DNA of 46,139 bases from Promethearchaeati archaeon. Its GTDB lineage: Archaea; Asgardarchaeota; Heimdallarchaeia; Heimdallarchaeales; Heimdallarchaeaceae. Under the pieces are notes generated by a model. The model worked only from the letters and a program-made list of their open reading frames with translations, was not told where the DNA came from and ran no database searches. Positions 5,405 to 35,213 of the stretch are shown one piece after another; position 1 is the first letter of the stretch, and every line of letters starts with the position of its first letter. A program made the translations under genes and the position numbers. The DNA is taken from assembly GCA_013166775.1 (NCBI GenBank), contig JABLTJ010000029.1:1-46139 (forward strand). Reading direction: 5' to 3'.

Positions 5405-5962
5405 TTGAAAATCAACAAAGTTTATAGTGCAGTAAGAAAAAAAAACATTATAATGGATATACCTTCGAAATATAAAGAAATAGATGTTTTCAAAGAAGGA
5501 ATACTATTGGGATTGTTCTTCATTTTAATTGGTATATTATTCATTGTCGTACATACTTTCATTCCAATAAACTGGCTGAGTGTATTCGCTGTAATATTCT
5601 TTGCATTAGGATTTGTAATTCTCTTTATGTCTACTTTCATTCCTTATTTGAGTAGAAGACAAAGTAATATTCTATTATTTACTTGGAATGAAATGGTATA
5701 TCTATTTCTTGGATTGCCATTAGTATCAATTTGTCTATTGATACTTCCCGTTTCCATCTATATCCTATTCTTTTCTGGTGATGTAAGTATTGTAGGAATG
5801 TTTTGTTTATATTTTGTTTTAGCTCTACAACTATCATCATTGATTTACACAGGAGTTACAATTTGGTTACATAGAAGGTCCAGTGGTCATCCAATTTCTA
5901 CTAAAATCGATAAAGGATCAATTGAACAATTTCTCTATAAATTACCCTCAGTAGAGGACTAA
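5405..5962 (+). CDS. Hypothetical 4-TM membrane protein
   Basis: Four hydrophobic helices; alternative ATG start at 5453 (MDIPS). Confidence 0.65.
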   Translation: MKINKVYSAVRKKNIIMDIPSKYKEIDVFKEGILLGLFFILIGILFIVVHTFIPINWLSVFAVIFFALGFVILFMSTFIPYLSRRQSNILLFTWNEMVYLFLGLPLVSICLLILPVSIYILFFSGDVSIVGMFCLYFVLALQLSSLIYTGVTIWLHRRSSGHPISTKIDKGSIEQFLYKLPSVED

Positions 5963-6031: not shown

Positions 6032-7111
6032 ATGCACAAAAAATTGTTTATTCCTGGACCAACCGAAGTAGGTGATGATGTCCTAAAAGCGCAAGCCAGG
6101 TATATGATTGGACATAGAAGTCAAGATTTTACTGATTTATATGACAGCATACTTACTCAATTGCGAGAATTATTCAAGACAGATCAACATATTTTAGTTG
6201 TTGCAGCTTCTGGTACAATATTCATGGATATTACAGCTAGAAACTTAATACGATCTGGAAAGAAAGCCCTTTGTTGTGTCAATGGCTCTTTCTCCTCTAG
6301 AATGTATGATGCAGTAGTAGGAAGTGAAAAAGAAGCTGATAGGCTAGATGTTGAATGGGGAAAGGCTGTAAAACCTGAAATGATTAAAGAGAAACTAGAA
6401 AAAAGCAAATATGATGTAATCACAATCTGTTACAATGAAACAAGTACAGGTGTAAAAGCTCATCTCAAAGAAATTGCTGATGTCTTAAAAGATTATCCTG
6501 AGACTCTTCTAGCTGTTGATGCAGTCTCTTCAATGGGAGGAGATTTGCTTTATCCTGAAGAAATGGGAACAGATCTTGTTTTTGCTTCATCTCAGAAATG
6601 TTTTGCTTTACCACCTGGTTTAGCAGTAGGAGTAGTGTCTCAAAAAGCTCTAGACAGAGCTAATGAAGTAAAAGGTAGAGGACTCTATACAGACCTAGTA
6701 GCAATACTAGGGTACTACGAAAAGAAGAAACAAACACCCTCTACACCTGCAATCTCACTTCTTTATGCTATGGATTTCCAGTTAAAGAAAATGTTGAAAG
6801 AAGGAGCAGAAGGTATATATCAAAGACACAAAGCTATGGCTGATTATACTCACAAATGGGCTTTGGATAGAGGATTCGGATTATTTGCAGAAGAAGGGTA
6901 TAGATCCATTACTGTAACTACTGTTGTTAATACTCTTGGAAAAGATGTAGGTGCTCTGAATAAAGCACTAGGAGAAAAAGGGATGATTCTAGCAAATGGG
7001 TATGGTAAGCTAAAAGATCAAACTTTTAGGATAGGACATATGGGTGATCATACTGTCGAAGATATTAAAAAACTACTGAATTGTATAGATGAAATATGGG
7101 AGCTTAAGTGA
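6032..7111 (+). CDS. Class V PLP aminotransferase (alanine-glyoxylate/serine-pyruvate type; probable archaeal-type phosphoserine aminotransferase)
   Basis: LFIPGPT, GHRS, NETSTGV, VDAVSS, SSQKCFALPPG (PLP Lys) and FRIGHMG motifs; lies directly upstream of serA. Confidence 0.9.
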   Translation: MHKKLFIPGPTEVGDDVLKAQARYMIGHRSQDFTDLYDSILTQLRELFKTDQHILVVAASGTIFMDITARNLIRSGKKALCCVNGSFSSRMYDAVVGSEKEADRLDVEWGKAVKPEMIKEKLEKSKYDVITICYNETSTGVKAHLKEIADVLKDYPETLLAVDAVSSMGGDLLYPEEMGTDLVFASSQKCFALPPGLAVGVVSQKALDRANEVKGRGLYTDLVAILGYYEKKKQTPSTPAISLLYAMDFQLKKMLKEGAEGIYQRHKAMADYTHKWALDRGFGLFAEEGYRSITVTTVVNTLGKDVGALNKALGEKGMILANGYGKLKDQTFRIGHMGDHTVEDIKKLLNCIDEIWELK

Positions 7112-7121
7112 GGTTTTGAAT

Positions 7122-8045
7122 ATGCCAAAAGTAATCTTAACAGATAAATTAAATGATAAAGTTATAGAAATTCTGGAGGAGGCAGGTTTTGAAGTTAAAG
7201 TCGCTTGGGATTTGCCTAAAGATGATCTTCCAAAAATAATTGGAGAGTACGATGCTGTCATAGTAAGAGGGGCAACAAAAGTTCGAGGAGATCTGTTAGA
7301 AAAAGCAGTCAATTTGAAAGTCGTAGGAAGAGCAGGAGTTGGATTGGACAACATAGATTTGGAATCTACAATGGCTCGAGGTATTAAAGTTGTAAATACT
7401 CCAGCTGCTACTACCAATTCCGTCGCTGAATTAGCTCTCACAATGGTTTTATCATCAACTCGTGATGTTGTAAAAGGAACATGTGAAATCAAAGCTAATC
7501 CTGGATCCTTTGGTTCAATGAAGAAAGAACTCTTTTCTAGAGAAATAGATGGTAAAACTTTGGGTTTAATAGGCACTGGTCGAATTGGTACCAGTTTAGC
7601 TGTCAAGTGCAAAGCTTTGGGAATGAATGTAATAGGTTTTGATAAGTATGTTACTGAAAATCCAGTCGTGGAAATGAAAGGTACAATGGAAGATGTTCTT
7701 GAGGAAGCAGATTTTATTAGTCTTCATCTACCTTTGACAGAAGATACTAAACATATGATCAATAAAGAAGTGATAGACAAGATGAAAAAAGGTGCTGTTC
7801 TAATCAATTGTGCTAGAGGAGGAATCGTTGATGAACACGCAGCACATGATGCATTGGAATCAGGACATTTAGGTTATTATTGTACAGATGTTTTTGAAGT
7901 TGAGCCACCAAGTACAGATAATCCTCTATTGCATCACGAAAATGTCATTATCAGTCCACACATTGGAGCTCAAACAGCAGAAGGAAATTACCGAGCTAGC
8001 GTTCAAGCAGCTGAAAGAGTGATAGAATCTTTCAAAGAAATATAA
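7122..8045 (+). CDS. serA: D-3-phosphoglycerate dehydrogenase (D-2-hydroxyacid dehydrogenase family, no ACT domain)
   Basis: RAGVGLDNID, VVNTP, GLIGTGRIG, HLPLT, INCARGG, DVFEVEP and SPHIGAQT motifs; ATG at 7122 after GAGG. Confidence 0.85.
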   Translation: MPKVILTDKLNDKVIEILEEAGFEVKVAWDLPKDDLPKIIGEYDAVIVRGATKVRGDLLEKAVNLKVVGRAGVGLDNIDLESTMARGIKVVNTPAATTNSVAELALTMVLSSTRDVVKGTCEIKANPGSFGSMKKELFSREIDGKTLGLIGTGRIGTSLAVKCKALGMNVIGFDKYVTENPVVEMKGTMEDVLEEADFISLHLPLTEDTKHMINKEVIDKMKKGAVLINCARGGIVDEHAAHDALESGHLGYYCTDVFEVEPPSTDNPLLHHENVIISPHIGAQTAEGNYRASVQAAERVIESFKEI

Positions 8046-8113
8046 TTCATTTTTTTCTCTTCTTTTTCTTTCATTTAGGAAAGTTTTAAGATAAACTAGA
8101 ATTTTATTTTCTC

Positions 8114-9166
8114 ATGAAAGCTGCATTAATTGGTTTAGGAGCTATAGGTACTATAATTGCTGCAGATTTAGCTAAAAATGACTTTCCTCTATATGTAGTC
8201 TGCAAGCATCAAGAGACACTTGATCTAGTAAAGAAACGAGGTTTGAAAGTGACTGGAGTTGATGGAGAGTACATAGTAAAGGAGAACCTTTTCCCAGTCT
8301 TAACTATTGAAGATCTTCCTGAAGAATTAGATTTGATTTTTATGGTAACCAAATTAACAGAATTAGAGGATGCTTTCAAAAGAATTAAAGTGAAATTATC
8401 TAATGATTTTTCTCTGGTTACAATGACAAATGGTGTAATAGAAGAACGACTTAGTGGACTAATCACTAAGAGTCAGCTTATGGGCTGTGTAGTTAGCTTT
8501 GGTGCAACTAAATCTGGTCATGCAGAATCTATTAAAACTTCTTCAGGAGAAATGGTCATTGGTAGAATGGATGGAAAAAAACAAGAATTCGATGATAAAC
8601 TTATAGAACTTCTATCTAACACGGTTCCAACTACTTGGTCTGAAAAAATTATAAACGAAAAATTCACTAAATTACTTATAAACCTGGCAGTAACCTCTTT
8701 TGGGGTAATAAGTGGGATGAAATTAGGCGAAATGCTGGCAAGAAAGAAGACAAGAATTGCTTTCTTGACTGTTATAACTGAAGGAGTTACTGTAGCTAAA
8801 AGAAAAGGTATTCAACTACAGAAGATGAATAACTTGAATATGGAATTCTTAGTATTAACAAGAAAAGAACTGAATGGACTTTCTATCAAACACATCCTGA
8901 AACAAACAATAGTAAAAATCGTTGGAAGAAAATATAAGGATTTGAGATCATCCAGCCTTCAATCAATTGAATCTGGAAGAAAAACAGAATTGGATTTTAT
9001 AAATGGATATCTGATCGCTGAAGGAGAAAAATATGGCGTAGAGACACGCCTTAACTCATATGTTCTTGAAGAAATTCATAAAATAGAAGAAGGGAAGAAA
9101 AAACCATCTTTAAAAGGATTAGAAGAATTAGAGCAAAAAACAATGGAAATTTGGGATTTAAGATAA
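8114..9166 (+). CDS. panE: 2-dehydropantoate 2-reductase (ketopantoate reductase)
   Basis: IGLGAIG Rossmann motif, xNG, KLLIN and SSLQS...GRKTELDFING motifs. Confidence 0.85.
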   Translation: MKAALIGLGAIGTIIAADLAKNDFPLYVVCKHQETLDLVKKRGLKVTGVDGEYIVKENLFPVLTIEDLPEELDLIFMVTKLTELEDAFKRIKVKLSNDFSLVTMTNGVIEERLSGLITKSQLMGCVVSFGATKSGHAESIKTSSGEMVIGRMDGKKQEFDDKLIELLSNTVPTTWSEKIINEKFTKLLINLAVTSFGVISGMKLGEMLARKKTRIAFLTVITEGVTVAKRKGIQLQKMNNLNMEFLVLTRKELNGLSIKHILKQTIVKIVGRKYKDLRSSSLQSIESGRKTELDFINGYLIAEGEKYGVETRLNSYVLEEIHKIEEGKKKPSLKGLEELEQKTMEIWDLR

Positions 9167-9173
9167 TCTTCTC

Positions 9174-10637
9174 TCAGATACACCTATCAACAGCTGATGA
9201 TCCTTTATCATCATATTCAGCTTTAGAAACCCAAAAGTTACGTTCTTCAAAAACCTTCGACCTTGATAGCATCGATCCTCCAATCCAACTAGAAATAAGT
9301 TTGTCATGTTTTGCAGTGATATTAAAAATCATATGATTTGAGACTTTTGCTTTGAAGGATTTTCTGAACCTTTCCATAAAACCTTCATACATCGTACCAC
9401 CCCCCACGAGTAAGATATTTGCATAAAGACTTTTAGCTAATCCTTTATCGCATTTCTGAATTGATTCAATAACGGCATCAGCTAAATCTCCAGGATTACT
9501 CAAAATACTTAGTGGTTCTTCTTCAAATAGAATTTCTGTTGATTTGTATCTGATATCATCCATTTTAACGTGTTTATCTTGAAGAATATTTATGAATCTT
9601 ACATATTTGTCCGATTGCATCAATTTCCTATCTTCTTCTTTGATATTTTGAGAAACATAACAGAGTTCTTCAGACATTAATCGAATGTTTTTGAGCATCT
9701 GATTTTTTTCATGGGGGGAATCTGGAATTACTATGCCTTCTTCTTGTATGTATCTCTCTAGTTGTTTGACAACGTTTAGTCCCCCCTTCTCACGCACACT
9801 CACCCCATGAGAAATAATATAGCATTCATAGATTGGAATTATTCTTGTTGAATTTGCACCTATCCCCACAACAACTCCTGTATCTTGTTCATTAGCATAA
9901 AGTGAGAGAAATTCCCCTAAAGAGAAATATATCTTGGAAATGTTGAAACCATTAAAGAATACTTCTGCCATAACTCGTCTAATTGAGATTGCTGTTTCAA
10001 AACTATTAATATACTTGCATATCTTCTCTTTTCTTAGAAAATCTTTTGCTTTCTCTGGTAAAGAGCTATTATTAATTACATCAAGTCTACCCTTTAAGAA
10101 ATCTGAAAATCTATCTTTGAAATGTTTTTCAACAACCCAAACAGCTGTTTCTAATGGTTTAATTTTAAGTTTCTCAAAAACATGTGAAAGGAATATCTCA
10201 AAAGTAGATTTATCAATTTCTTCACTTTCATCAACTAAACGAAAGATATGGCTGGTTTTCTTTACTTTTTTTTCTATTTCAGTTTTATCTGCATTTTGAA
10301 TAAAAGATTCTCCAGAATCTGTAAAATAAACTGCTGAATCAAAAATATGTCTAGGTTTTTTTTCTCCAGCAAAACCAACTTTAGTTAAAGAAAAGCCAGG
10401 ATCTAAGACAACAATCTTTGGATTTGTAACTTTCTCAACTAATTTAGTAGTGTTAGTTAGTATCTCTTGAATACCTCCAATTCTCATTCGATCATATTCT
10501 TTCAGCATTTTAGAACATTCATCGCAATAATACCCAACTGCTAGCCATTTTCTTTTTTTAGTACCTTTTCTAATGTAAAGTCGAAGCATTACTTTTCCGC
10601 AATGTTTGGGTTTTGATTTCGAATTAATTTGTGTCAT
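9174..10637 (-). CDS. Divergent actin-related protein with an N-terminal zinc-ribbon domain
   Basis: VVLDPGFSLTKVGFAG..P, LSLYA..TGVVV, PIYE, EELCYV, SIQKCD...LYANILLVGGGTMY, SWIGGSML and WVSKAEYDDKG align to eukaryotic actin. The N-terminus has HCGK.M...YCDEC. Probable ATG at 10637 after AGAAGGAAG. Confidence 0.9.
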   Translation of the reverse strand: MTQINSKSKPKHCGKVMLRLYIRKGTKKRKWLAVGYYCDECSKMLKEYDRMRIGGIQEILTNTTKLVEKVTNPKIVVLDPGFSLTKVGFAGEKKPRHIFDSAVYFTDSGESFIQNADKTEIEKKVKKTSHIFRLVDESEEIDKSTFEIFLSHVFEKLKIKPLETAVWVVEKHFKDRFSDFLKGRLDVINNSSLPEKAKDFLRKEKICKYINSFETAISIRRVMAEVFFNGFNISKIYFSLGEFLSLYANEQDTGVVVGIGANSTRIIPIYECYIISHGVSVREKGGLNVVKQLERYIQEEGIVIPDSPHEKNQMLKNIRLMSEELCYVSQNIKEEDRKLMQSDKYVRFINILQDKHVKMDDIRYKSTEILFEEEPLSILSNPGDLADAVIESIQKCDKGLAKSLYANILLVGGGTMYEGFMERFRKSFKAKVSNHMIFNITAKHDKLISSWIGGSMLSRSKVFEERNFWVSKAEYDDKGSSAVDRCI

Positions 10638-10683
10638 CTTCCTTCTTGTAGATGTGTAAATATCCAAGTAAATAAATATTGTT

Positions 10684-10713
10684 GAAGATATATCTTATAT
10701 GTGATATATCTTC
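10684..10713. promoter_or_regulatory. Perfect 11-bp inverted repeat (operator-like) in the divergent actin/DUF1015 promoter region
   Basis: GAAGATATATC-TTATATGT-GATATATCTTC; each arm contains the palindrome GATATATC. Confidence 0.6.
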
Positions 10714-10842
10714 TGTTAATGGTATATCATGGGTTTTAGTTTATAGATTTCAAACTTTGAAACAGAAATCAAGAAAATCGCTGATTTTCATATTCTTATA
10801 CAAAAATTAAAATAGAGTTTCTCATGAAGTTGTTTGATAGGT

Positions 10843-12117
10843 ATGGTAAATATAAAACCATTTAGAGCAATTAGATTTACTGAAAAAGCTGGAAATATCG
10901 AAAACTTGATAGCTCAACCTTATGATAAAATTGATGCAGAAATGCAAAATGAGTATTATGCAAAATCAGCTTACAATTATTGTCGTTTGACTTTACCAAT
11001 TGAAGAGAATAGATATGAAATTTCTAGAGAAAGATTAGTAAAATGGCTAGAGGAACAGATATTAGTCAAAGATGAAGACCCATCAATTTACATCTATTAT
11101 CAAGAATTTGAACTGTTCGGAGAAAAATATGTAAGGAAGGGATTTATTGGAGCTTTACGATTACACCCATTTGATGAAAATATAGTTCTACCTCATGAGA
11201 AGACACACAAAGGTCCAAAGATAGATAGGTTGAACATGCTAAAAACAACAAAACACACTCTGGAAACAGGTTTTATTCTTTATTCAGATCCAGAAAAAAG
11301 AACTCTAGGATTGTTTGATGAAATAGCAGGTGAAATCCCTTTGATAGAAGCGAAAGATGGATTAGGTGTTCTTAATAAAATATGGAAATTGACAGATCCA
11401 GTTAAGATAAGCATAATTCAGGATGTGTTCAAGGATCAACAATTAGTTATTGCAGATGGACACCATCGTTACGAAACAGCTGTGACATATAGAAACATGC
11501 GTAGAGAAAGAGCTGGATTATGGAATGATGATGATGCCTATAATTTCAGAATGACTTATCTCGTTCCTGTTCAAGATGAAGGATTAATTATCTTAGCTAC
11601 TCATCGTTGTTTAACAAAAGTGAAAGTTACTGAAACTAATATGAACGAATTCAGACAATTCTTCGATATGGATGAAATAGGTCAGAATGACATTCCTAAA
11701 TTCCTTGAAAACAATAAAGATAAACATGCTTTCGTCTTTTATCAAAATAACAAAGCAGTTGGAATGACTATGAAACTACCTTCTGATATTAATAGATTTA
11801 CACAAGATGTCAGTGATGATTACAAAGAATTAGATGTAGTTATTCTTCGAGATATGATCTTTCATGGAATAATGGGTTTGGGAGAATTACACATTGATGA
11901 TGATATCTTCTATGAACGATGGTGGAAAGAAGCTCTAGAAGATGTCGATTCTGGTAAATATCAAGTCGCATTTATTCTTAATCCAACAAGTGCAGAACAA
12001 GTCTTAAAAGTTGCTAAAAATCACGAAAGAATGCCTCAGAAAGCTACTGATTTCTATCCAAAGATGATTAGTGGCCTCACAATGCTTAGCTTAGAAGATG
12101 GAGAAAAGATTATCTAA
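10843..12117 (+). CDS. DUF1015 family protein (ParB/Srx-like fold; commonly linked to serC/serA)
   Basis: IKPFRA, PYDKI, PHEKT..PKIDRL, IADGHHRYETA and MPQKATDFYPK motifs. Confidence 0.9.
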   Translation: MVNIKPFRAIRFTEKAGNIENLIAQPYDKIDAEMQNEYYAKSAYNYCRLTLPIEENRYEISRERLVKWLEEQILVKDEDPSIYIYYQEFELFGEKYVRKGFIGALRLHPFDENIVLPHEKTHKGPKIDRLNMLKTTKHTLETGFILYSDPEKRTLGLFDEIAGEIPLIEAKDGLGVLNKIWKLTDPVKISIIQDVFKDQQLVIADGHHRYETAVTYRNMRRERAGLWNDDDAYNFRMTYLVPVQDEGLIILATHRCLTKVKVTETNMNEFRQFFDMDEIGQNDIPKFLENNKDKHAFVFYQNNKAVGMTMKLPSDINRFTQDVSDDYKELDVVILRDMIFHGIMGLGELHIDDDIFYERWWKEALEDVDSGKYQVAFILNPTSAEQVLKVAKNHERMPQKATDFYPKMISGLTMLSLEDGEKII

Positions 12118-14934: not shown

Positions 14935-15186
14935 TTATCTTCCAATTTCTTGTTCAATAAAACCTACAATTTCTCCTACAGTATTAAATTCATATAAAAT
15001 ATTTTCAGGCATTATGATATCGAATTCTCGTTCTATAAGAAAAGAGAGGTTAACTAGATCATCTTCGTTCATTCCTAAATCTTCCTGAAAATAAGTATTG
15101 ATTGTGATTTTGCTTTTTCTTACATTTGTTAGTTTCGCAAGGATTTTCTGAAATTTGTAAAAGATAGTCTGATACATTTTCTTCAC
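14935..15186 (-). CDS. Acyl-carrier-protein-like protein lacking the phosphopantetheine-attachment serine
   Basis: I...T.F.EDLG.....V.L...IEREFDI.MP......TVGEIV.FI matches the ACP pattern, but DSL is replaced by NED. The start overlaps the stop of the LLM gene. Confidence 0.7.
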   Translation of the reverse strand: MKKMYQTIFYKFQKILAKLTNVRKSKITINTYFQEDLGMNEDDLVNLSFLIEREFDIIMPENILYEFNTVGEIVGFIEQEIGR

Positions 15187-16118
15187 TACATAATTTTTTC
15201 GTGGAATAGTTTTAGTGGATCTTCTGTAGTTTCTAATTTTCTAACTGTAAAAACCAATCTTTCAATTCCAATTTCATTGATTTGAGTTATTTTTTCTTTA
15301 ATGTCTTCCGGGAACCCTATGATTCGGTTTTTAAGAACTTCCTCTTTTGTAGGTTTTTCCCCTTCTTTATTGCGTCCTATGATTTTACTAATTTCAGTCT
15401 CTAATTCTTCTTGATTATCAACTAAAGTTACATCAGTGAATAAAGAAATTTCAAATTTGTTTGGATTTCTGTCAAAACTGGAAAGTAACTCATTGATATT
15501 GTTAACTTTCAATGCTAGATCTTCGTATTTAGTATAAGGCAGATTTATTCCATCAGCTTCTCTGCAAGCTATCTTTGTCATTCTTTTTCCTAAGGTTCCC
15601 AAGACAATTGGTGGGTAGGGTTTCTGAACTGGTTTAGGAAAGTTTCTGTTATTTTCTAGTATCCAAATTTCCCCTGCAAAATCTGTAGAATCTTCAGTAA
15701 ATAATTTCTTAATAATTGTGAGTGATTCTTCTAGTTCATCTACTCTTCTTTTAGGTGTGGGGAAAGAATAACCGTAAGCTTTGTATTCCTCTTCATACCA
15801 TCCAGCTCCAAGCCAGAGTAAAGCTCTTCCTTTGGAAATATTATCCAAAGTGCTGATTGATTTAGCTAGATGTGCTGGATTCCTAAAGGAATTACAGAGG
15901 ACAATGTGTCCAAGTTTTATTTTTTCCGTTTCTGCAGCTAAAGCACTCATTAACATTAATGCTTCAAGGTAAGGTTCTTTCTTTTCTTGTTTCTCATCAA
16001 AACCAATAAGATGATCGTTTACATGAGCAGAATCAAATCCCATTTTTTCTACTCTGATTGTTAAATCTCTAATTGCTGGATAATTTAGTTCCGATCTAAC
16101 ATAATAGCCAAATTTCAT
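15186..16118 (-). CDS. LLM-class (luciferase-like, probably F420-dependent) oxidoreductase
   Basis: GFDS..VNDH, LAAET..IKLG..V.CN.FRNPA.LAK, TLDNISKGR, LGAGW..EY.AYG and PKPVQKP.PPI motifs. Confidence 0.9.
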   Translation of the reverse strand: MKFGYYVRSELNYPAIRDLTIRVEKMGFDSAHVNDHLIGFDEKQEKKEPYLEALMLMSALAAETEKIKLGHIVLCNSFRNPAHLAKSISTLDNISKGRALLWLGAGWYEEEYKAYGYSFPTPKRRVDELEESLTIIKKLFTEDSTDFAGEIWILENNRNFPKPVQKPYPPIVLGTLGKRMTKIACREADGINLPYTKYEDLALKVNNINELLSSFDRNPNKFEISLFTDVTLVDNQEELETEISKIIGRNKEGEKPTKEEVLKNRIIGFPEDIKEKITQINEIGIERLVFTVRKLETTEDPLKLFHEKIM

Positions 16119-18850: not shown

Positions 18851-19753
18851 TTATAACTGAGTTTTTAATAATTCGAAAAATTGATTTTTGAAGTTTTCAT
18901 GAGTTTCTATATTTATTGACTTCATATTTTCCCAGCTATTTATCTTTTTGATGACAAATTCTTCAATTTCGCTTCTGTTTTCGAACAAAAAGTAATATTC
19001 TCTTGGGAAGAATACAAGTAATAAACAAGGTTGTTTTCCTCCAAATCTGTAATCAGCTTGATCATCCTTTAGCTGAAATACGAAAGTTTCCATCAAAAAG
19101 TCAGTTTTATCCAGAACTGGGAAAGGTCCAAACAATCCCATTTGATTCTCAAATCCTTGCATAACTCCACTGAAAATGTAAACAGTTACCTTTGTAATCA
19201 ATTCATTTAGATGATCTTTCTTAGCAAAATCAAGCTGATCTGTGGTGATTACTTCTCCACCTAAATAACCATATTTGACGAATGAAATTTGAACAGATTC
19301 TAAGATTTCATCTGATGACTTAGATGATAAAATTCTTGTTTTATCTGTAAGTTTTACATCTCGAATAATCTCTATATATTTCTCTAATTCTTCGTTTTCG
19401 TCTAAGACTGGAATGAATTGAATTTCTAAGAATAAATTGTCTCCATTCTCACTTATAGTTTTTCGAAAGATGTTATGTCTCTGTTTGTCAGAAAAACCTA
19501 TATTAGCAGGACAATCAGGGCATGGTTCATTTTTCCTTTCAGGAATGTAATGCCATCTGTTATAACATTGACGATAAAGAAAAGATCCTACCATCTCTCT
19601 AACTTTCTGGTTTTCATAGATTATTGTTCGATCTGCTTTTTGAACAGATATTCCAAAAGGTAATTCATCTAATATCCATTCAAAATTGCTTTCTTTTTTT
19701 AGAACTTCCCCAAGCTCTACTTCAGATTCCCCGTTAACATTATCTCCTGTCAT
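18851..19753 (-). CDS. PAS-domain sensor protein with an uncharacterised C-terminal domain
   Basis: ILDELPFGISV...IIYEN, CY......PCPDCP and EI...PV.DE......IEIIRDV are PAS features; no kinase or HTH output domain. Confidence 0.75.
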   Translation of the reverse strand: MTGDNVNGESEVELGEVLKKESNFEWILDELPFGISVQKADRTIIYENQKVREMVGSFLYRQCYNRWHYIPERKNEPCPDCPANIGFSDKQRHNIFRKTISENGDNLFLEIQFIPVLDENEELEKYIEIIRDVKLTDKTRILSSKSSDEILESVQISFVKYGYLGGEVITTDQLDFAKKDHLNELITKVTVYIFSGVMQGFENQMGLFGPFPVLDKTDFLMETFVFQLKDDQADYRFGGKQPCLLLVFFPREYYFLFENRSEIEEFVIKKINSWENMKSINIETHENFKNQFFELLKTQL

Positions 19754-20517: not shown

Positions 20518-22104
20518 TTGAAGAAAATGCCAGAACCTAGAAAAATTGACAAACTTCATTTGAGAGGTTTCTATAGGTGGAAGATACAATTTCCTTTTGC
20601 CATTGTTGTTTTCTTAGGTCTTTTCATCCTAGCTGTTTATCTAAAACATATTCTTGGAGATTGGGTTAATTCAGAAGTAGGAACCGCTTTCTATCACACT
20701 TTCCAAGATAATCAAGGAGTTAGTGTTACTTGGTATTTTGAGAATTATGGTGATGCAGAATACTATTATGAGTCTTATCTAGAAAACTTCCGTTATAATA
20801 GATGGAATCCTTATGCTCCTCCTTTGCCATTTGATAGTGAAGACAAATTAGATTTCTATCTCTATGGACCCTTCTTAGTTTATGGATTTGCTTTTATCTC
20901 TCTCTTTGTGGAATTGTTCAATCCTGGTACTTCTTTAGATTTCCTTATTCCTGCATCTATCAAATGGACTGCAATTGTCTTTGATGCTCTTTCAGTCGCT
21001 ATGATCTATCTAATAATAATAGGTCTGAAAACGTTCAAATCTAAGAGAGCAGTAGCACATTTAGCTGGAATTTCTGGAGCATTAGCTTATATTTTCATGC
21101 CTATGAATCTACTCTACATAGATGCATCATATCTTAATATCCCACAAATGACTTTTTTCACTTTACTAGCTCTTTTTCTTTTCCTTAAAGAGAAATATGT
21201 GTTCTCATCAATTGTATTTTCTATAGCATGGCTATCAAAACAAATGCCATTATTTTCGATCATACCTCTGTTTTTCATATTGGGAAAAAAGACGCATTTC
21301 TCCTTCGCTTTAAAGAGATTTCTTATTCCGTTTATTCTCTCAACATTTATTTTTTCAATTCCATGGATTTTTCTAAATCCATTCAAATATTCTATTAGAA
21401 TTATAGGTGCAGGAAGATCCTTATGGTATGCTACTTTAGCAGAAGAAGGAAATAAACACGGAGTAACTTTAGCTCACAGTTTACTATATGGTAATGCTGA
21501 ATTCTTATCAAGAGTCTATGTATACCTGAATGTAGCAATGATTCCATTTCTGATTTTCTATATTTATTCAATTTTCATTGCTCATTTTAATGGAAAGCAA
21601 ATTGCTGAAAATGAAACAAATTTCTATGTATACAACACTTGGTTGATTGTTCTCACACATACATTTCTCTCAAGAGGAGTATACAAGTATTATGATGCTT
21701 TCTTTAATCCATTTCTAGTGATTTCCTCAATTCTACTTATCAACAGATTAGTAAATCTTATCGAATCAAATATAGGGAACGAGAAGAATATCAGAAGAAA
21801 GAAAGTTTTACATATCTTGTCCAAATTAATTTTTCCACTGATTTTCATTCTATCAATTGCATTTATTTATTCTGTTAATTGGGGTATAATGATTTCTTCA
21901 AGATTCTTACATCCTGTTTGGTTACTTCTTCTATTTCTATTTCTCTCAATCTTACTTCCGACACAATATTACAGAGAACTGATGATGCGTGAGAATTACA
22001 AATATTTCTGGAGAGATATAAAATTGATCTTTTCAATGATTTGGTTTAGGGTGAAGAGTACTATAGTGATGATCTGGCAAAAAATTAGTTTCAGAAAAGA
22101 GTAG
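20518..22104 (+). CDS. GT-C fold membrane glycosyltransferase (GT87/PIG-M/PMT-like)
   Basis: About 12 TM segments, an acidic/aromatic first loop (DAEYYY...YLYGP) and P.NL........P..FF.LL.L......S......A..SKQ.P motif. Confidence 0.65.
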   Translation: MKKMPEPRKIDKLHLRGFYRWKIQFPFAIVVFLGLFILAVYLKHILGDWVNSEVGTAFYHTFQDNQGVSVTWYFENYGDAEYYYESYLENFRYNRWNPYAPPLPFDSEDKLDFYLYGPFLVYGFAFISLFVELFNPGTSLDFLIPASIKWTAIVFDALSVAMIYLIIIGLKTFKSKRAVAHLAGISGALAYIFMPMNLLYIDASYLNIPQMTFFTLLALFLFLKEKYVFSSIVFSIAWLSKQMPLFSIIPLFFILGKKTHFSFALKRFLIPFILSTFIFSIPWIFLNPFKYSIRIIGAGRSLWYATLAEEGNKHGVTLAHSLLYGNAEFLSRVYVYLNVAMIPFLIFYIYSIFIAHFNGKQIAENETNFYVYNTWLIVLTHTFLSRGVYKYYDAFFNPFLVISSILLINRLVNLIESNIGNEKNIRRKKVLHILSKLIFPLIFILSIAFIYSVNWGIMISSRFLHPVWLLLLFLFLSILLPTQYYRELMMRENYKYFWRDIKLIFSMIWFRVKSTIVMIWQKISFRKE

Positions 22105-32245: not shown

Positions 32246-34180
32246 ATGGACGTAGTACTGTTTAAAGGAATTCTGCAAAAATCTTCCGTAAAGTTTGGGC
32301 TATTATCAAAGAAAATGATTCTAAGTTTTGAAAAAGATGGAAAACATCTTCTTCCACGTGACAGAAGTAAACAGCTGATTGAATTACCTTCAGAAATTGA
32401 TTTAAGGAAGATAAAGAAAAATTCCAAAGAAGCATCGAAAGCAATCGAATTTTATCTCAATTATCCAGAATTAGAGAGTACAGCATTTGGTGCGTATATG
32501 ATTGATTATTATATTCAAGAAATGTCAAACAAGGATCAGATTATAGAGGAACTTGATGAAGAAGCAAGAAGTTTCTTTGATCCCCTGATTGAACGCTTTT
32601 TGCAACCTACTTTTCTTAAGAATTCTGCATTTTATCCTAATTATGAAAAAGAATCTAAAGTGATATCGAGATATGCACTTCTTGATTTAGAGCTAGTGTT
32701 TGGGACAGTATTGAGAAATATCGAAGGTCTTCTTTTCAAGGATGAGAAACCTGTTCCCATCTTCCCTTTGAGATATTCAACTCGAGCTGTAACTGAGGAT
32801 GATCTAGATAAACTTGAAGGTATTGTTAAAGAAAGATTAGCTAAATGGTTTAGTTGGAGAACAATCTTGAGGAAAGCTCCTTATTTCTACAACCACATAA
32901 TCCATTGGATTCACCAGATTCTAGAAAAACTGTATCCTGAGGATCAAGAAGTAATAAAAGATATAGTTGAGACTACAGAACGAGCTGAAGTATTTGGCAA
33001 TCCTGATATCTTTGACTCTCTTCAGCAAGGAGAGGACTTCAAAGCTGATGACCTATCTTCAGTTAGTTTAAACAAAAATATATTGTATTATCTATCTTTA
33101 CAATATTTCTTACAAGAAAAGCAATTAACTTTCAAGAAATATAATCAAACAGGTGCATTCGGATATCAGAATATTCTTATCTCAATGGCAAATATATTCA
33201 CTTCATTACCTCTATTCACAAATTTTAATCCTCCATTCGCTATGATTGCTGGAGGATTAATAGAATGGATAGAACAAGGACTTCCTTTCAACGCTATTCG
33301 AGGGAATCAGCAACTTGATCCCTATAATATTATTCCCAATGCTCTAGGTTTCTATCTATCAATTATCAGTAGCAAAATTAAAACTTTAAAAGAAAGAAAA
33401 TTCCTTCTCGCAAAATCATTGGAAAAGATTTTTTCTCCTTCAGTATTCAAGGAAGGTTTGGTTTGGCATAAGCGATCAACTTTAGCTATGCAAGGAAAAG
33501 ATGCTAATGTTGAGAACATAGAGATTACAGATGAAGAAAATCTAGAAAAACTCAAGGAGATTCAAGAATCTCTGGATAAATATGCTAAATCACTAAGATT
33601 AAGAAAAGAAAAACAAGAAGAAATCAAATCGATTGTTGAAAAAATGAATATTATTGACAAAGATTTCGATGAGATGAAGGAAGAAAGAGATAATTTCTTG
33701 AAAATTAATGATAGTTCAAAGGAACTTCTTACCGACTTTCAGAAGGATTTTCTACTTTCAGTACAATTATTTGAGAATGATAAGAAGATTCTTGATTCTT
33801 TCGCAGAATTATTTGATTTTACAAATAAATATATAGTATTAGGAAATGCTAGTTCACTCTATGGTCTCGCGCTTCTTTTCTGGATGATTAGTATTACTAA
33901 TGAAGGTTCATTGAAGTGGCTAACCCAAGCAATTGAAGATAAACCTGATCTTTCCTATGAAAGTAAAATTCTTACTGTAGTTTGTACTATATACAACACC
34001 TCTCTTCAAGGATTGAAAATTAGAGACCACCCATTAATTGAGACTACAGCTCCTACAGTAATTGTTCAAACAGCTCAAAACCTAAGTGAATTTCTAGTTG
34101 CTAAAGATATTTCAGAAGAGGAAAATTACCCATTCTATGATTTATTGATAAAAAATCTAGAAACTGTCTACCCTATGTAA
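32246..34180 (+). CDS. Large hypothetical protein with a central-C-terminal coiled coil
   Basis: 644-aa ORF with GAGG upstream; heptad-like charged segment EENLEKLKEIQESLDKYAKSLRLRKEKQEEIK; no recognised motif. Confidence 0.75.
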   Translation: MDVVLFKGILQKSSVKFGLLSKKMILSFEKDGKHLLPRDRSKQLIELPSEIDLRKIKKNSKEASKAIEFYLNYPELESTAFGAYMIDYYIQEMSNKDQIIEELDEEARSFFDPLIERFLQPTFLKNSAFYPNYEKESKVISRYALLDLELVFGTVLRNIEGLLFKDEKPVPIFPLRYSTRAVTEDDLDKLEGIVKERLAKWFSWRTILRKAPYFYNHIIHWIHQILEKLYPEDQEVIKDIVETTERAEVFGNPDIFDSLQQGEDFKADDLSSVSLNKNILYYLSLQYFLQEKQLTFKKYNQTGAFGYQNILISMANIFTSLPLFTNFNPPFAMIAGGLIEWIEQGLPFNAIRGNQQLDPYNIIPNALGFYLSIISSKIKTLKERKFLLAKSLEKIFSPSVFKEGLVWHKRSTLAMQGKDANVENIEITDEENLEKLKEIQESLDKYAKSLRLRKEKQEEIKSIVEKMNIIDKDFDEMKEERDNFLKINDSSKELLTDFQKDFLLSVQLFENDKKILDSFAELFDFTNKYIVLGNASSLYGLALLFWMISITNEGSLKWLTQAIEDKPDLSYESKILTVVCTIYNTSLQGLKIRDHPLIETTAPTVIVQTAQNLSEFLVAKDISEEENYPFYDLLIKNLETVYPM

Positions 34181-34253: not shown

Positions 34254-35213
34254 ATGCACTATGTAGCCCAACTTGCAATAAGCATTGTAACAATCTATGG
34301 TGGTATAGGTGCAGGATTCCTTTTCCAGAAATTACCCAAATCAGAGCAAGTAGGTAAATGGATGCTTTTTGCAGGATTGAACATTCTTACACCTCTCATG
34401 CTGATTTTTGTATTTTTAGATCTAGAATCTTTTAACGGAGTAAACTGGGGGTATGTTTTTCTTGTCTGTACTGTTGCAATGTTTATATCAATGATAATAG
34501 ACTGGATAATGATTAGAAAAAAAAACATGACAAAAGCAGCAAAAGGAGCAGAATTAAGTGCTATGGGATTCATGAATGGAATTTTTTATCCATTTCCCAT
34601 AATAATTGGAGTCTTACCTCCTGAACATCAAGCTGAGGGTTTACTTGCTGCTTCTCTATTTTTACTAATCCAGACTATATATCGAAATAGTTTCGGTGTA
34701 TACATTGGCATACACTATGGCTCAACTTCAAGAAAATCATTGCTAAGAATTCTCAGGGAATTATTGCTTTTTCCCCCAACCTTAGGGATGTTTCTTGGTA
34801 TTATTTTACGATTTACAGTAGGTCGGTATGAAAGTAGTGATTTAGTTGCTATATCTGTTTTGAATAATATTACAATGTTCATAATGCTAGCTATAGTGGG
34901 ATTAGGTTTTATATTACCTAGGAAGGAAGAATGGAAGGAAATTCCAATTATCAGAGGAATAATTGCTAGATTCGGAGGAGGATTGTTAACCATTATAATG
35001 ATAATCTTTCTGCCTCTTACTATAATCGCTCAAATACCTTTAATTATTCAGAGTATTGCTCCTCCAGCAGTCAATAATTCTGCTTATGCGAAATTTTTCG
35101 AATTAGATGAAATCTTAACAAGTAGATTCATTACAATATTGACTTTAATTGCATTAATGTTTCTACCAATCGAAATAGCTATATTGATGTGGTGGCAGCA
35201 AATAATACTATAG
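34254..35213 (+). CDS. AEC (auxin efflux carrier/malate permease) family transporter
   Basis: 10 TM segments in two repeats; F.NG.F.PFP, FPP..G and PPAVNN..YA motifs. Confidence 0.82.
   Translation: MHYVAQLAISIVTIYGGIGAGFLFQKLPKSEQVGKWMLFAGLNILTPLMLIFVFLDLESFNGVNWGYVFLVCTVAMFISMIIDWIMIRKKNMTKAAKGAELSAMGFMNGIFYPFPIIIGVLPPEHQAEGLLAASLFLLIQTIYRNSFGVYIGIHYGSTSRKSLLRILRELLLFPPTLGMFLGIILRFTVGRYESSDLVAISVLNNITMFIMLAIVGLGFILPRKEEWKEIPIIRGIIARFGGGLLTIIMIIFLPLTIIAQIPLIIQSIAPPAVNNSAYAKFFELDEILTSRFITILTLIALMFLPIEIAILMWWQQIIL

Follow-up and report, generated by a model that had tools for sequence, protein, structure and literature searches.

A gene on the minus strand at 9174..10637 of the 46,139-nucleotide stretch of DNA analysed here (the window) encodes a protein of 487 amino acids in which a divergent actin is fused to a small, basic head that is probably a zinc ribbon. 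Its promoter carries three copies of a GRTATAYC box that are inherited with the gene. On balance we consider it probable, though by no means assured, that this Zn-ribbon-actin is a non-polymerising, self-regulating DNA-binding actin paralogue that acts like a ROK-type one-component regulator.

The gene encodes a third, divergent actin

The preliminary description of this DNA had reported the open reading frame together with a number of motifs, and all of these are present at the coordinates given; the frame lies on the minus strand, with an ATG at 10637 and the stop at 9174. There is an in-frame TTG upstream at 10667, which is not a likely start because it lies only 2 nt from the TATA-like element. 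Residues 75-485 match the Pfam family Actin (PF00022) with an E-value of 7e-55 and 186.7 bits, against a curated cut-off of 27, and the best sequence match of known structure is the HC1 actin (PDB 9wc4, E 2.7e-41). The AlphaFold model has a mean pLDDT of 87.7 and adopts the four-subdomain actin fold, superimposing on actin with Z 41.4 and an rmsd of 2.5 Å over 355 aligned residues. The same genome encodes two canonical Lokiactins, both on other contigs, so that the 487-amino acid protein is a third, divergent copy. Of the two Lokiactin-type genes (G000 C1:257723-258859 and C97:141791-142900), the one on C97 has a modified D-loop and sits on the longer branch.

The fusion is not peculiar to this assembly. 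About 40 full-length orthologues with 37-74% identity have the head, the insert and the body in common, which rules out an assembly chimera or a read-through of two genes. The head-actin junction is also spanned without differences by a contig that the same study obtained from another sample, and dN/dS is 0.13-0.20 in close pairs (i.e. the gene is under purifying selection), both of which exclude the same artefacts.

The actin body

The actin-fold body comprises residues 73-487 (9177..10421, minus strand). We compared its residues by aligning 36 members of the Zn-ribbon-actin family against 13 Lokiactins. The family retains D11, G13, K18, G156, R210, E214, G301 and G302, so that nucleotide binding is plausible. 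It has lost G15, Q137, D154, D157, G158, H161, R177 and K213, together with the G74/H73 region. G15, Q137, D154, D157, G158, H161 and R177 are all invariant across the 13 Lokiactins. In the protein studied here Q137 has become G241, D154 has become G258 and H161 has become R265 when aligned with eukaryotic actin and the Lokiactins, as the preliminary description had stated. Position 137 is variable within the family (Gly in 19, Lys in 10, Glu in 5 and Gln in 1). By contrast, the adjacent position 138 (E242) is Glu in 35 of the 36 members and acidic in all, and position 161 (R265) is Arg in 35 of 36. Judged from the alignment, this near-invariant Glu138/Arg161 pair takes the place of Q137/H161, so the catalytic region is rewired, not merely decayed. 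Normal ATP hydrolysis is likely to have been lost. The term pseudo-ATPase is unproven, because the nucleotide-site residues are kept and the new Glu/Arg pair is present.

The Glu/Arg pair could alternatively belong to an active ATPase with a rewired site, in which E242/R265 serve for Q137/H161 and the protein forms short, DNA-nucleated oligomers on its promoter boxes. MreB and ParM use a Glu, and the conservation of E242 and R265 would fit such an enzyme, as would the retention of D11, K18, G156, E214 and G301/G302. However the Glu is one residue out of register with Q137, the pointed-face contacts are unconserved, and G15, G158, D154, D157, K213, R177 and the G74/H73 region are lost. We therefore regard this as very improbable.

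The two faces of the actin body have evolved differently. On the barbed side Y143, Y166, G168, an aromatic residue at 169, H173, I341, I345, L346, F352, W356 and E361 are retained, although this conservation is partly that of the fold core. The C-terminal RCI ending, also on the barbed side, is common to Zn-ribbon-actin and the Lokiactins of this family. On the pointed side P243/G245, R290 and G268 are lost. The identity to Lokiactin is 0.09 in subdomain 2 and 0.23 in subdomain 4, and rises to 0.54 over residues 338-375. The intact D-loop and the subdomain 4 filament contacts of Lokiactin are not present. The D-loop had been described as missing; it is shortened, yet not wholly absent, for in the AlphaFold model residues 106-110 (10308..10322, minus strand) form a turn of five residues between strands 102-105 and 111-112. 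Subdomain 2 overall is some 4 residues shorter than that of eukaryotic actin. The previously noted insertion of about 40 amino acids is a net addition of 41 between actin E107 and R116. It forms a family-specific helical insert in subdomain 1 at about residues 174-216 (9990..10118, minus strand), standing in place of the Pro-rich loop of actin.

Since the pointed face is scrambled and the barbed face kept, Zn-ribbon-actin is unlikely to build a homopolymer of the F-actin type, and one face would be free for a partner. The non-polymerising part of the earlier proposal of a non-polymerising pseudo-ATPase is thus supported, while catalytic death does not follow. The genome encodes three gelsolin-domain proteins.

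The zinc-ribbon head and linker

The head comprises residues 10-46 (10500..10610, minus strand) and contains the motif RxYIRKG..R.W..GYYCxxC. The four putative metal ligands H12, C13, C38 and C41 are invariant in the head alignment, in agreement with the earlier suggestion of an N-terminal extension with a zinc ribbon; in relatives of the head the first pair of ligands is CxxC or CC. The head is modelled as a beta ribbon, and is probably a zinc ribbon. Residues 7-46 include 13 Lys or Arg and only 2 Asp or Glu. With a conservation of 0.80 the head is the most conserved part of the protein, and it has the lowest dN in nearly all close pairs.

Pfam finds Actin alone in the full protein. Among curated families (Pfam, NCBIfam and PHROGs) the head gives only weak matches below the cut-offs, to GRF, YgiT/MqsA, DUF6487 and TFIIS, and it matches none of the characterised DNA-binding families. 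Fold searches with the head give no match above background: the best structural match is ZCCHC4 (Z 3.3, rmsd 2.8, 44 residues aligned), Foldseek E-values exceed 1, and there are weak resemblances to the MqsA N-domain (E 1.4) and to GRF fingers (Z 2.5-3.3).

The head is connected to the actin body by a variable linker, residues 47-72 (10422..10499, minus strand), with a predicted helix at 47-61 and a conserved L-V-x-[RK] motif. From the model, the helix and motif could be a WH2-like element that fills the protein's own barbed groove. In the model, residues 67 and 92 (the latter equivalent to actin D24) are each assigned to an isolated beta-bridge.

Three boxes in the promoter

Comparison of promoters revealed three boxes upstream of the gene, all on the minus strand, which formed no part of the preliminary description of this protein. 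Box 1 is a 12-bp near-palindrome, ATGATATACCAT, at 10719..10730 with its core at 10721-10728. Box 2 (GATATATC, 10703..10710) lies 18 bp from box 1, and box 3, with the same sequence (10687..10694), lies 16 bp from box 2 and ends 10 bp before a TATA-like element. The latter (TTTATTTA) and the BRE-like conserved AA that precedes it occupy 10669..10683, at a fixed distance from box 3, and their position suggests their function. Three copies of the core GRTATAYC with the 18/16 bp spacing are kept in 17 distinct promoters, and over the same 17 the TATA-like consensus TTTAWWAA and its preceding AA are conserved.

The three-box array is unique within this genome, where single 12-mers occur elsewhere at the background rate. 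No wider regulon was found in this genome, the gene itself being the only visible target, and neither of the two canonical actin genes has a box upstream. Of 399 Asgard genomes, 19 contain the strict triple, each a single time. Eighteen of these have the gene. In the remaining one (G008; L184, C159, about 6190-6303) perfect boxes are followed at once by what is left of the actin gene, its final ~16 codons; this is the scar of an internal deletion, which was probably recent. A larger deletion in G024 has removed the boxes too. The array of three carriers departs from this pattern but still has at least two boxes, and in the sister genus there are further boxes nearer the start codon. In viral contigs the three-box pattern gave 78 matches, nearly all of them coding repeats of 18 bp with no head nearby, and these were rejected.

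The neighbouring genes do not account for the boxes. Upstream lies a divergent DUF1015 gene (10843..12117, plus strand), and serC-like, serA-like and ApbA-like genes (6032..9166, plus strand) converge on the actin gene. Most copies of the gene lie antisense between DUF1015 and ApbA-serA-serC. Three loci (L040, L043 and L047) have other neighbours, from which we conclude that the neighbourhood reflects synteny and not function; the boxes are retained in these other settings, i.e. they travel with the gene. In three genomes of the same genus that lack the gene, DUF1015 lies beside ApbA with no box at the syntenic site, and in a genome with the gene elsewhere the boxes are at the gene with none at DUF1015. 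Since DUF1015 is boxless where the actin gene is absent or elsewhere, the boxes are ruled out as its control sites. No partner gene conserved across the contexts was found, and this is a single gene with a convergent downstream neighbour.

Some further features of the window may be noted. The serC-like, serA-like and DUF1015 genes form a cluster at bacterial serine loci, which here (6032-8045 and 10843-12117) is split by the ApbA and actin genes. At 14935-16118 an acyl-carrier-like (PP-binding) gene translationally adjoins a luciferase-like monooxygenase, an arrangement that is conserved across the genus. At the thresholds used no Pfam match was found for the open reading frames at 20518-22104 (528 aa), 32246-34180 (644 aa), 34254-35213 (319 aa), 18851-19753 (300 aa) and 5405-5962 (185 aa).

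Heads without actin, and their boxes

A search of 1.84 billion representatives with a profile of the head alone found relatives without actin. Some stand alone as proteins of 37-93 amino acids, others are in tandem, and in one fusion the head is joined to an unrelated body of 390 amino acids. They occur mostly among small unannotated ORFs, beside a terminase, a Zot-type ATPase or the end of a tRNA, surroundings that place them on virus-like elements. No second head was found in this genome (the assembly is 88.7% complete). A separate search for heads in viral contigs found none, a search of one metagenome found nothing, and 401 genomes of the Thermoproteota side gave one weak match.

Upstream boxes also occur at genes of these actin-less heads, and thus the box goes with the head and not with the actin. 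A strict box, set beforehand from the actin promoters, lies upstream of 6 of 29 non-actin heads, compared with 3 of 89 controls at the same loci (p 0.007); of 2747 genome windows, 35 have it. The sample is small, some heads are weak matches, and some share a locus or genome. Two or more boxes are present at 7/29 heads, 1/89 controls and 4/2747 genome windows. Among the 64 palindromic hexamers GTATAC ranks first upstream of the non-actin heads (10/29 against 8/89 controls), a pattern that is partly post hoc. Seventeen of the 29 are boxless within 250 bp, some of which are mid-operon or weak matches. This association outside actin is the strongest evidence at the level of sequence that the head reads the box, and suggests that it is a sequence-specific DNA-binding module. 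The earlier description had proposed a nucleic-acid or protein-binding module, and one that binds nucleic acid is probable.

Individual loci illustrate the association. Upstream of the non-actin fusions P0094/P0120 lie four ATGGTATACCAT-type boxes, two of them exact and two approximate. Three GGTATACC boxes accompany a standalone head from a different Heimdall family (L090), a phage-like, terminase-bearing contig (L256) has a head with two boxes, and two heads on a Loki-side element (L087) have one box each. At L060:1-315 a standalone head gene lies directly behind the 3′ end of a tRNA, a possible attachment site, with a box overlapping the start codon. Relatives of the P0094 body carry ECF sigma, AraC-HTH or ArsR-HTH domains in place of the head, so that the head fills the slot of a DNA-binding domain.

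Other heads were encountered in these searches. At L055:228-1550 and L200:2664-3989 the head is fused to an unannotated body of ~390 amino acids; a GyrI-like gene comes next, and four boxes surround a TATA-like element. The start called for P0094 should lie 13 codons further upstream. This fusion is a candidate for a second undescribed one-component regulator. Two paralogous proteins of ~340 amino acids (L089:1498-2517 and L249:487-1512, G039) combine a distant head with a further Cys/His motif and a helical tail, and their upstream boxes read TGTATACA or CGTATAC; the L089 protein has no Pfam match. At the distant heads L083, L089, L241, L247, L249 and L255 the GTATAC cores have other flanks (T..A or C..G), hinting that hairpin residues covary with the sequence of the box. 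On the Loki side, L254/L087 (G215:C31:15000-30000) has two adjacent head genes, small RHH-like genes and several boxes, with a third head 30 kb away, and the region looks like an integrated element. A histone gene (L239:620-829) lies on a contig of small ORFs that resembles a mobile element and also bears a head protein.

If the head did not read the boxes they might be read by an unrelated trans-acting factor, the head being a protein- or RNA-binding zinc ribbon of the MqsA-N/GRF kind and the whole protein a regulator of actin that is itself just one target of the factor. The weak resemblances of the head to the MqsA N-domain and GRF fingers, the retention of the boxes without the gene in G008, and the common occurrence of TATA-like cores in archaeal promoters would all be consistent with this. 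We nevertheless find it improbable. The box occurs before head genes in viral contigs, in other Asgard orders and at non-actin fusions, there is no second array in the genome, and the boxes have vanished along with the gene in three genomes.

Distribution and phylogeny

Every named orthologue is from a genome of the Heimdall group; one carrier, QM1B.68, is labelled Thorarchaeota, probably in error as its contig numbers match those of the same-genus genome G003. The head is present in 18 of 25 genomes of the genus, in 2 of the sister genus and in 1 of another family. Two genomes of the same family that are each a single contig lack it, and across 399 Asgard genomes no other actin bears it. The gene is patchy, repeatedly lost, dispensable and limited to a few genera.

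The family groups as a single clade (100/100) with a long stem. In both trees it falls outside the Lokiactin group, which is the short-branch clade of conserved Asgard actins, and outside that of ARP4. This separate clade, and the two canonical Lokiactins elsewhere in the genome, bear out the view that the protein is not the conserved filament actin of Asgard archaea. The clade lies among other divergent Asgard paralogues, where its placement is tentative, the long stem imposing a long-branch caveat on its origin. ARP4 joined the family in neither unconstrained tree, yet a tree constrained to their union is not rejected, with an AU p of 0.087; the trees were built without ARP1-3, 5, 6, 8, 10, crenactin or MreB, and the second, used for the AU test, also without long-branch rows.

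This bears on whether the protein acts as a general scaffold on chromatin, as an archaeal counterpart, analogous or orthologous, of nuclear ARP4/ARP8. The insertions of nuclear Arps on the actin fold block polymerisation (PMC3510490), and Arp8 binds DNA with its ATP pocket regulating the binding (PMC4191963). The non-polymerising anatomy, the basic N-terminal extension and the insert are all reminiscent of Arp8, and the AU test leaves the union with ARP4 standing. However that grouping is in neither tree, the gene is dispensable and limited to few genera, and its boxes are specific to a single locus, unlike general DNA binding. Arp8 prefers single-stranded DNA and works within INO80, in contrast to the apparent sequence-specific operator of Zn-ribbon-actin, which has a distinct zinc ribbon and its insert elsewhere; orthology with Arp8/Arp4 is no more than a candidate. 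The earlier suggestion of an analogue of chromatin-associated ARPs is thus disfavoured by evidence pointing to sequence-specific binding at one promoter array, and of the explanations considered we give it the least credence. The restriction of a dispensable gene to few genera marks it as a parallel experiment and not as an ancestor of the eukaryotic ARPs.

A possible mechanism

In our preferred reading, a divergent Asgard actin paralogue would have become fused to a small zinc-ribbon DNA-binding module of the kind found on archaeal mobile elements, and the operator of the module would have come along with it. The head would bind the GRTATAYC boxes, with several copies loading on the three-box array beside the BRE/TATA. 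The protein could then control its own transcription, by activation from the BRE-adjacent box and/or by repression at high occupancy; the boxes nearer the start codon in the sister genus could repress. BRE-adjacent sites are typical of archaeal activators (PMC2995911). The actin body would bind nucleotide, and a partner through its barbed groove, which might be a gelsolin-type protein, a Lokiactin subunit or its own linker, and its nucleotide or partner state would gate DNA binding, in the way that Arp8 uses its ATP pocket (PMC4191963) and that Mlc, a ROK repressor, is switched by a sequestering partner (PMC4288165). The role of the actin body is the least certain part of this, and by analogy it is most likely a sensor or an anchor. 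With its own gene as the only visible regulon, the purpose of a body of 415 amino acids is left unexplained.

As there is no target beyond its own gene, autoregulation might merely set the dose of a capper or tether of Lokiactin. The barbed face would dock on the pointed end of a Lokiactin filament while the head holds a parC-like array, linking DNA to the cytoskeleton, and, as in ParMRC, autoregulation would be incidental. Such docking has a precedent in dynactin, where the Arp1 filament is capped by Arp11. The one-sided conservation of the actin surface would be explained, as would the single array per genome, the presence of two Lokiactins and three gelsolin-domain genes, and the occurrence of head relatives on mobile elements. 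Yet the array is locked to the BRE/TATA spacing and has just 2-5 boxes, the insert lies in subdomain 1 near the lateral contacts, and the gene is patchy, repeatedly lost, and missing from two genomes of the family that consist of one contig each. Moreover cdc6, a marker for linkage to the origin, was not seen on the same contig as the gene in four of five fragmented assemblies, and is 84 kb away in the fifth. The filament capper or regulator put forward in the preliminary description is therefore a live rival, which we judge unlikely, and not the reading that we prefer.

Comparison with known systems

Zn-ribbon-actin shares with Lokiactin and Heimdallarchaeial actin (9wc4; PMC9834061) the actin fold, collinear from the phosphate-1 loop to the C-terminus, and the residues of the barbed groove. 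It is only ~27-30% identical, has its own zinc-ribbon head, 41-amino acid insert and D-loop remnant, and has lost Q137, D154 and H161. Lokiactin is universal, whereas Zn-ribbon-actin is patchy and has its own operator array. Divergent Asgard actin-related proteins are known as a class, i.e. asgardactins 02-05 (PMC8850707) and the Loki ARPs (PMC9834061). Zn-ribbon-actin resembles these in being a lineage-restricted, fast-evolving paralogue subject to gain and loss, and differs in its own long-stem clade and unique head.

Three further systems offer parallels. The sugar-kinase domain of ROK proteins belongs to the actin-like ATPase superfamily, and these proteins likewise fuse a DNA-binding domain to a repurposed actin-superfamily domain. 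Among the ROK-family repressors NagC and Mlc, the latter is switched by protein sequestration (PMC4288165). Zn-ribbon-actin is not a member: it has a zinc ribbon and not an HTH, and a true actin body rather than that of ROK, and a metabolic regulon was not found. Ss-LrpB has, in the control region of its own gene, three semi-palindromic sites at regular intervals, and activator sites a few bp upstream of the BRE (PMC2995911), a layout like the present one with its BRE-adjacent site; it is however an Lrp/HTH protein with further targets and no sequence relationship to Zn-ribbon-actin. The type II partition system ParMRC likewise joins an actin-family protein and a DNA-binding module with repeated sites in its own promoter. 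Its ParM, however, polymerises, and DNA binding falls to a separate RHH protein, ParR, whereas Zn-ribbon-actin is one chain encoded on the chromosome, with three boxes, lost polymer contacts and no separate adaptor gene.

Zn-ribbon-actin is therefore a member of the actin family, and neither a Lokiactin nor a ROK protein. A literature search, beyond the reach of which lay most subscription papers, yielded no description of a zinc-ribbon actin or of its head and box; the protein may be present, unnamed, in a published tree. What appears to be new is the coupling of a GTATAC-type box to the head outside actin.

Implications

Asgard actin paralogues have been known as branches of trees, none having an assigned job in the searchable literature. 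Zn-ribbon-actin comes with a predicted binding site. We put forward tentatively, and with less than even confidence, that a true actin paralogue itself binds DNA sequence-specifically and links a site on the chromosome to the state of the actin cytoskeleton (nucleotide, Lokiactin ends or free ligands of the barbed face). It would act as an actin-sensing switch of transcription or as a single-protein tether of DNA to actin, using an undescribed family of GTATAC-binding zinc ribbons from mobile elements. The head would also define a small, uncharacterised module, predicted to bind DNA, whose palindromic site can be predicted throughout the mobile elements of archaea. If the regulator reading is correct, a prokaryotic actin has been repurposed as a DNA-linked regulator independently of the eukaryotic nuclear ARPs, and the actin fold would move readily from cytoskeleton to gene control in a lineage near the eukaryotes.
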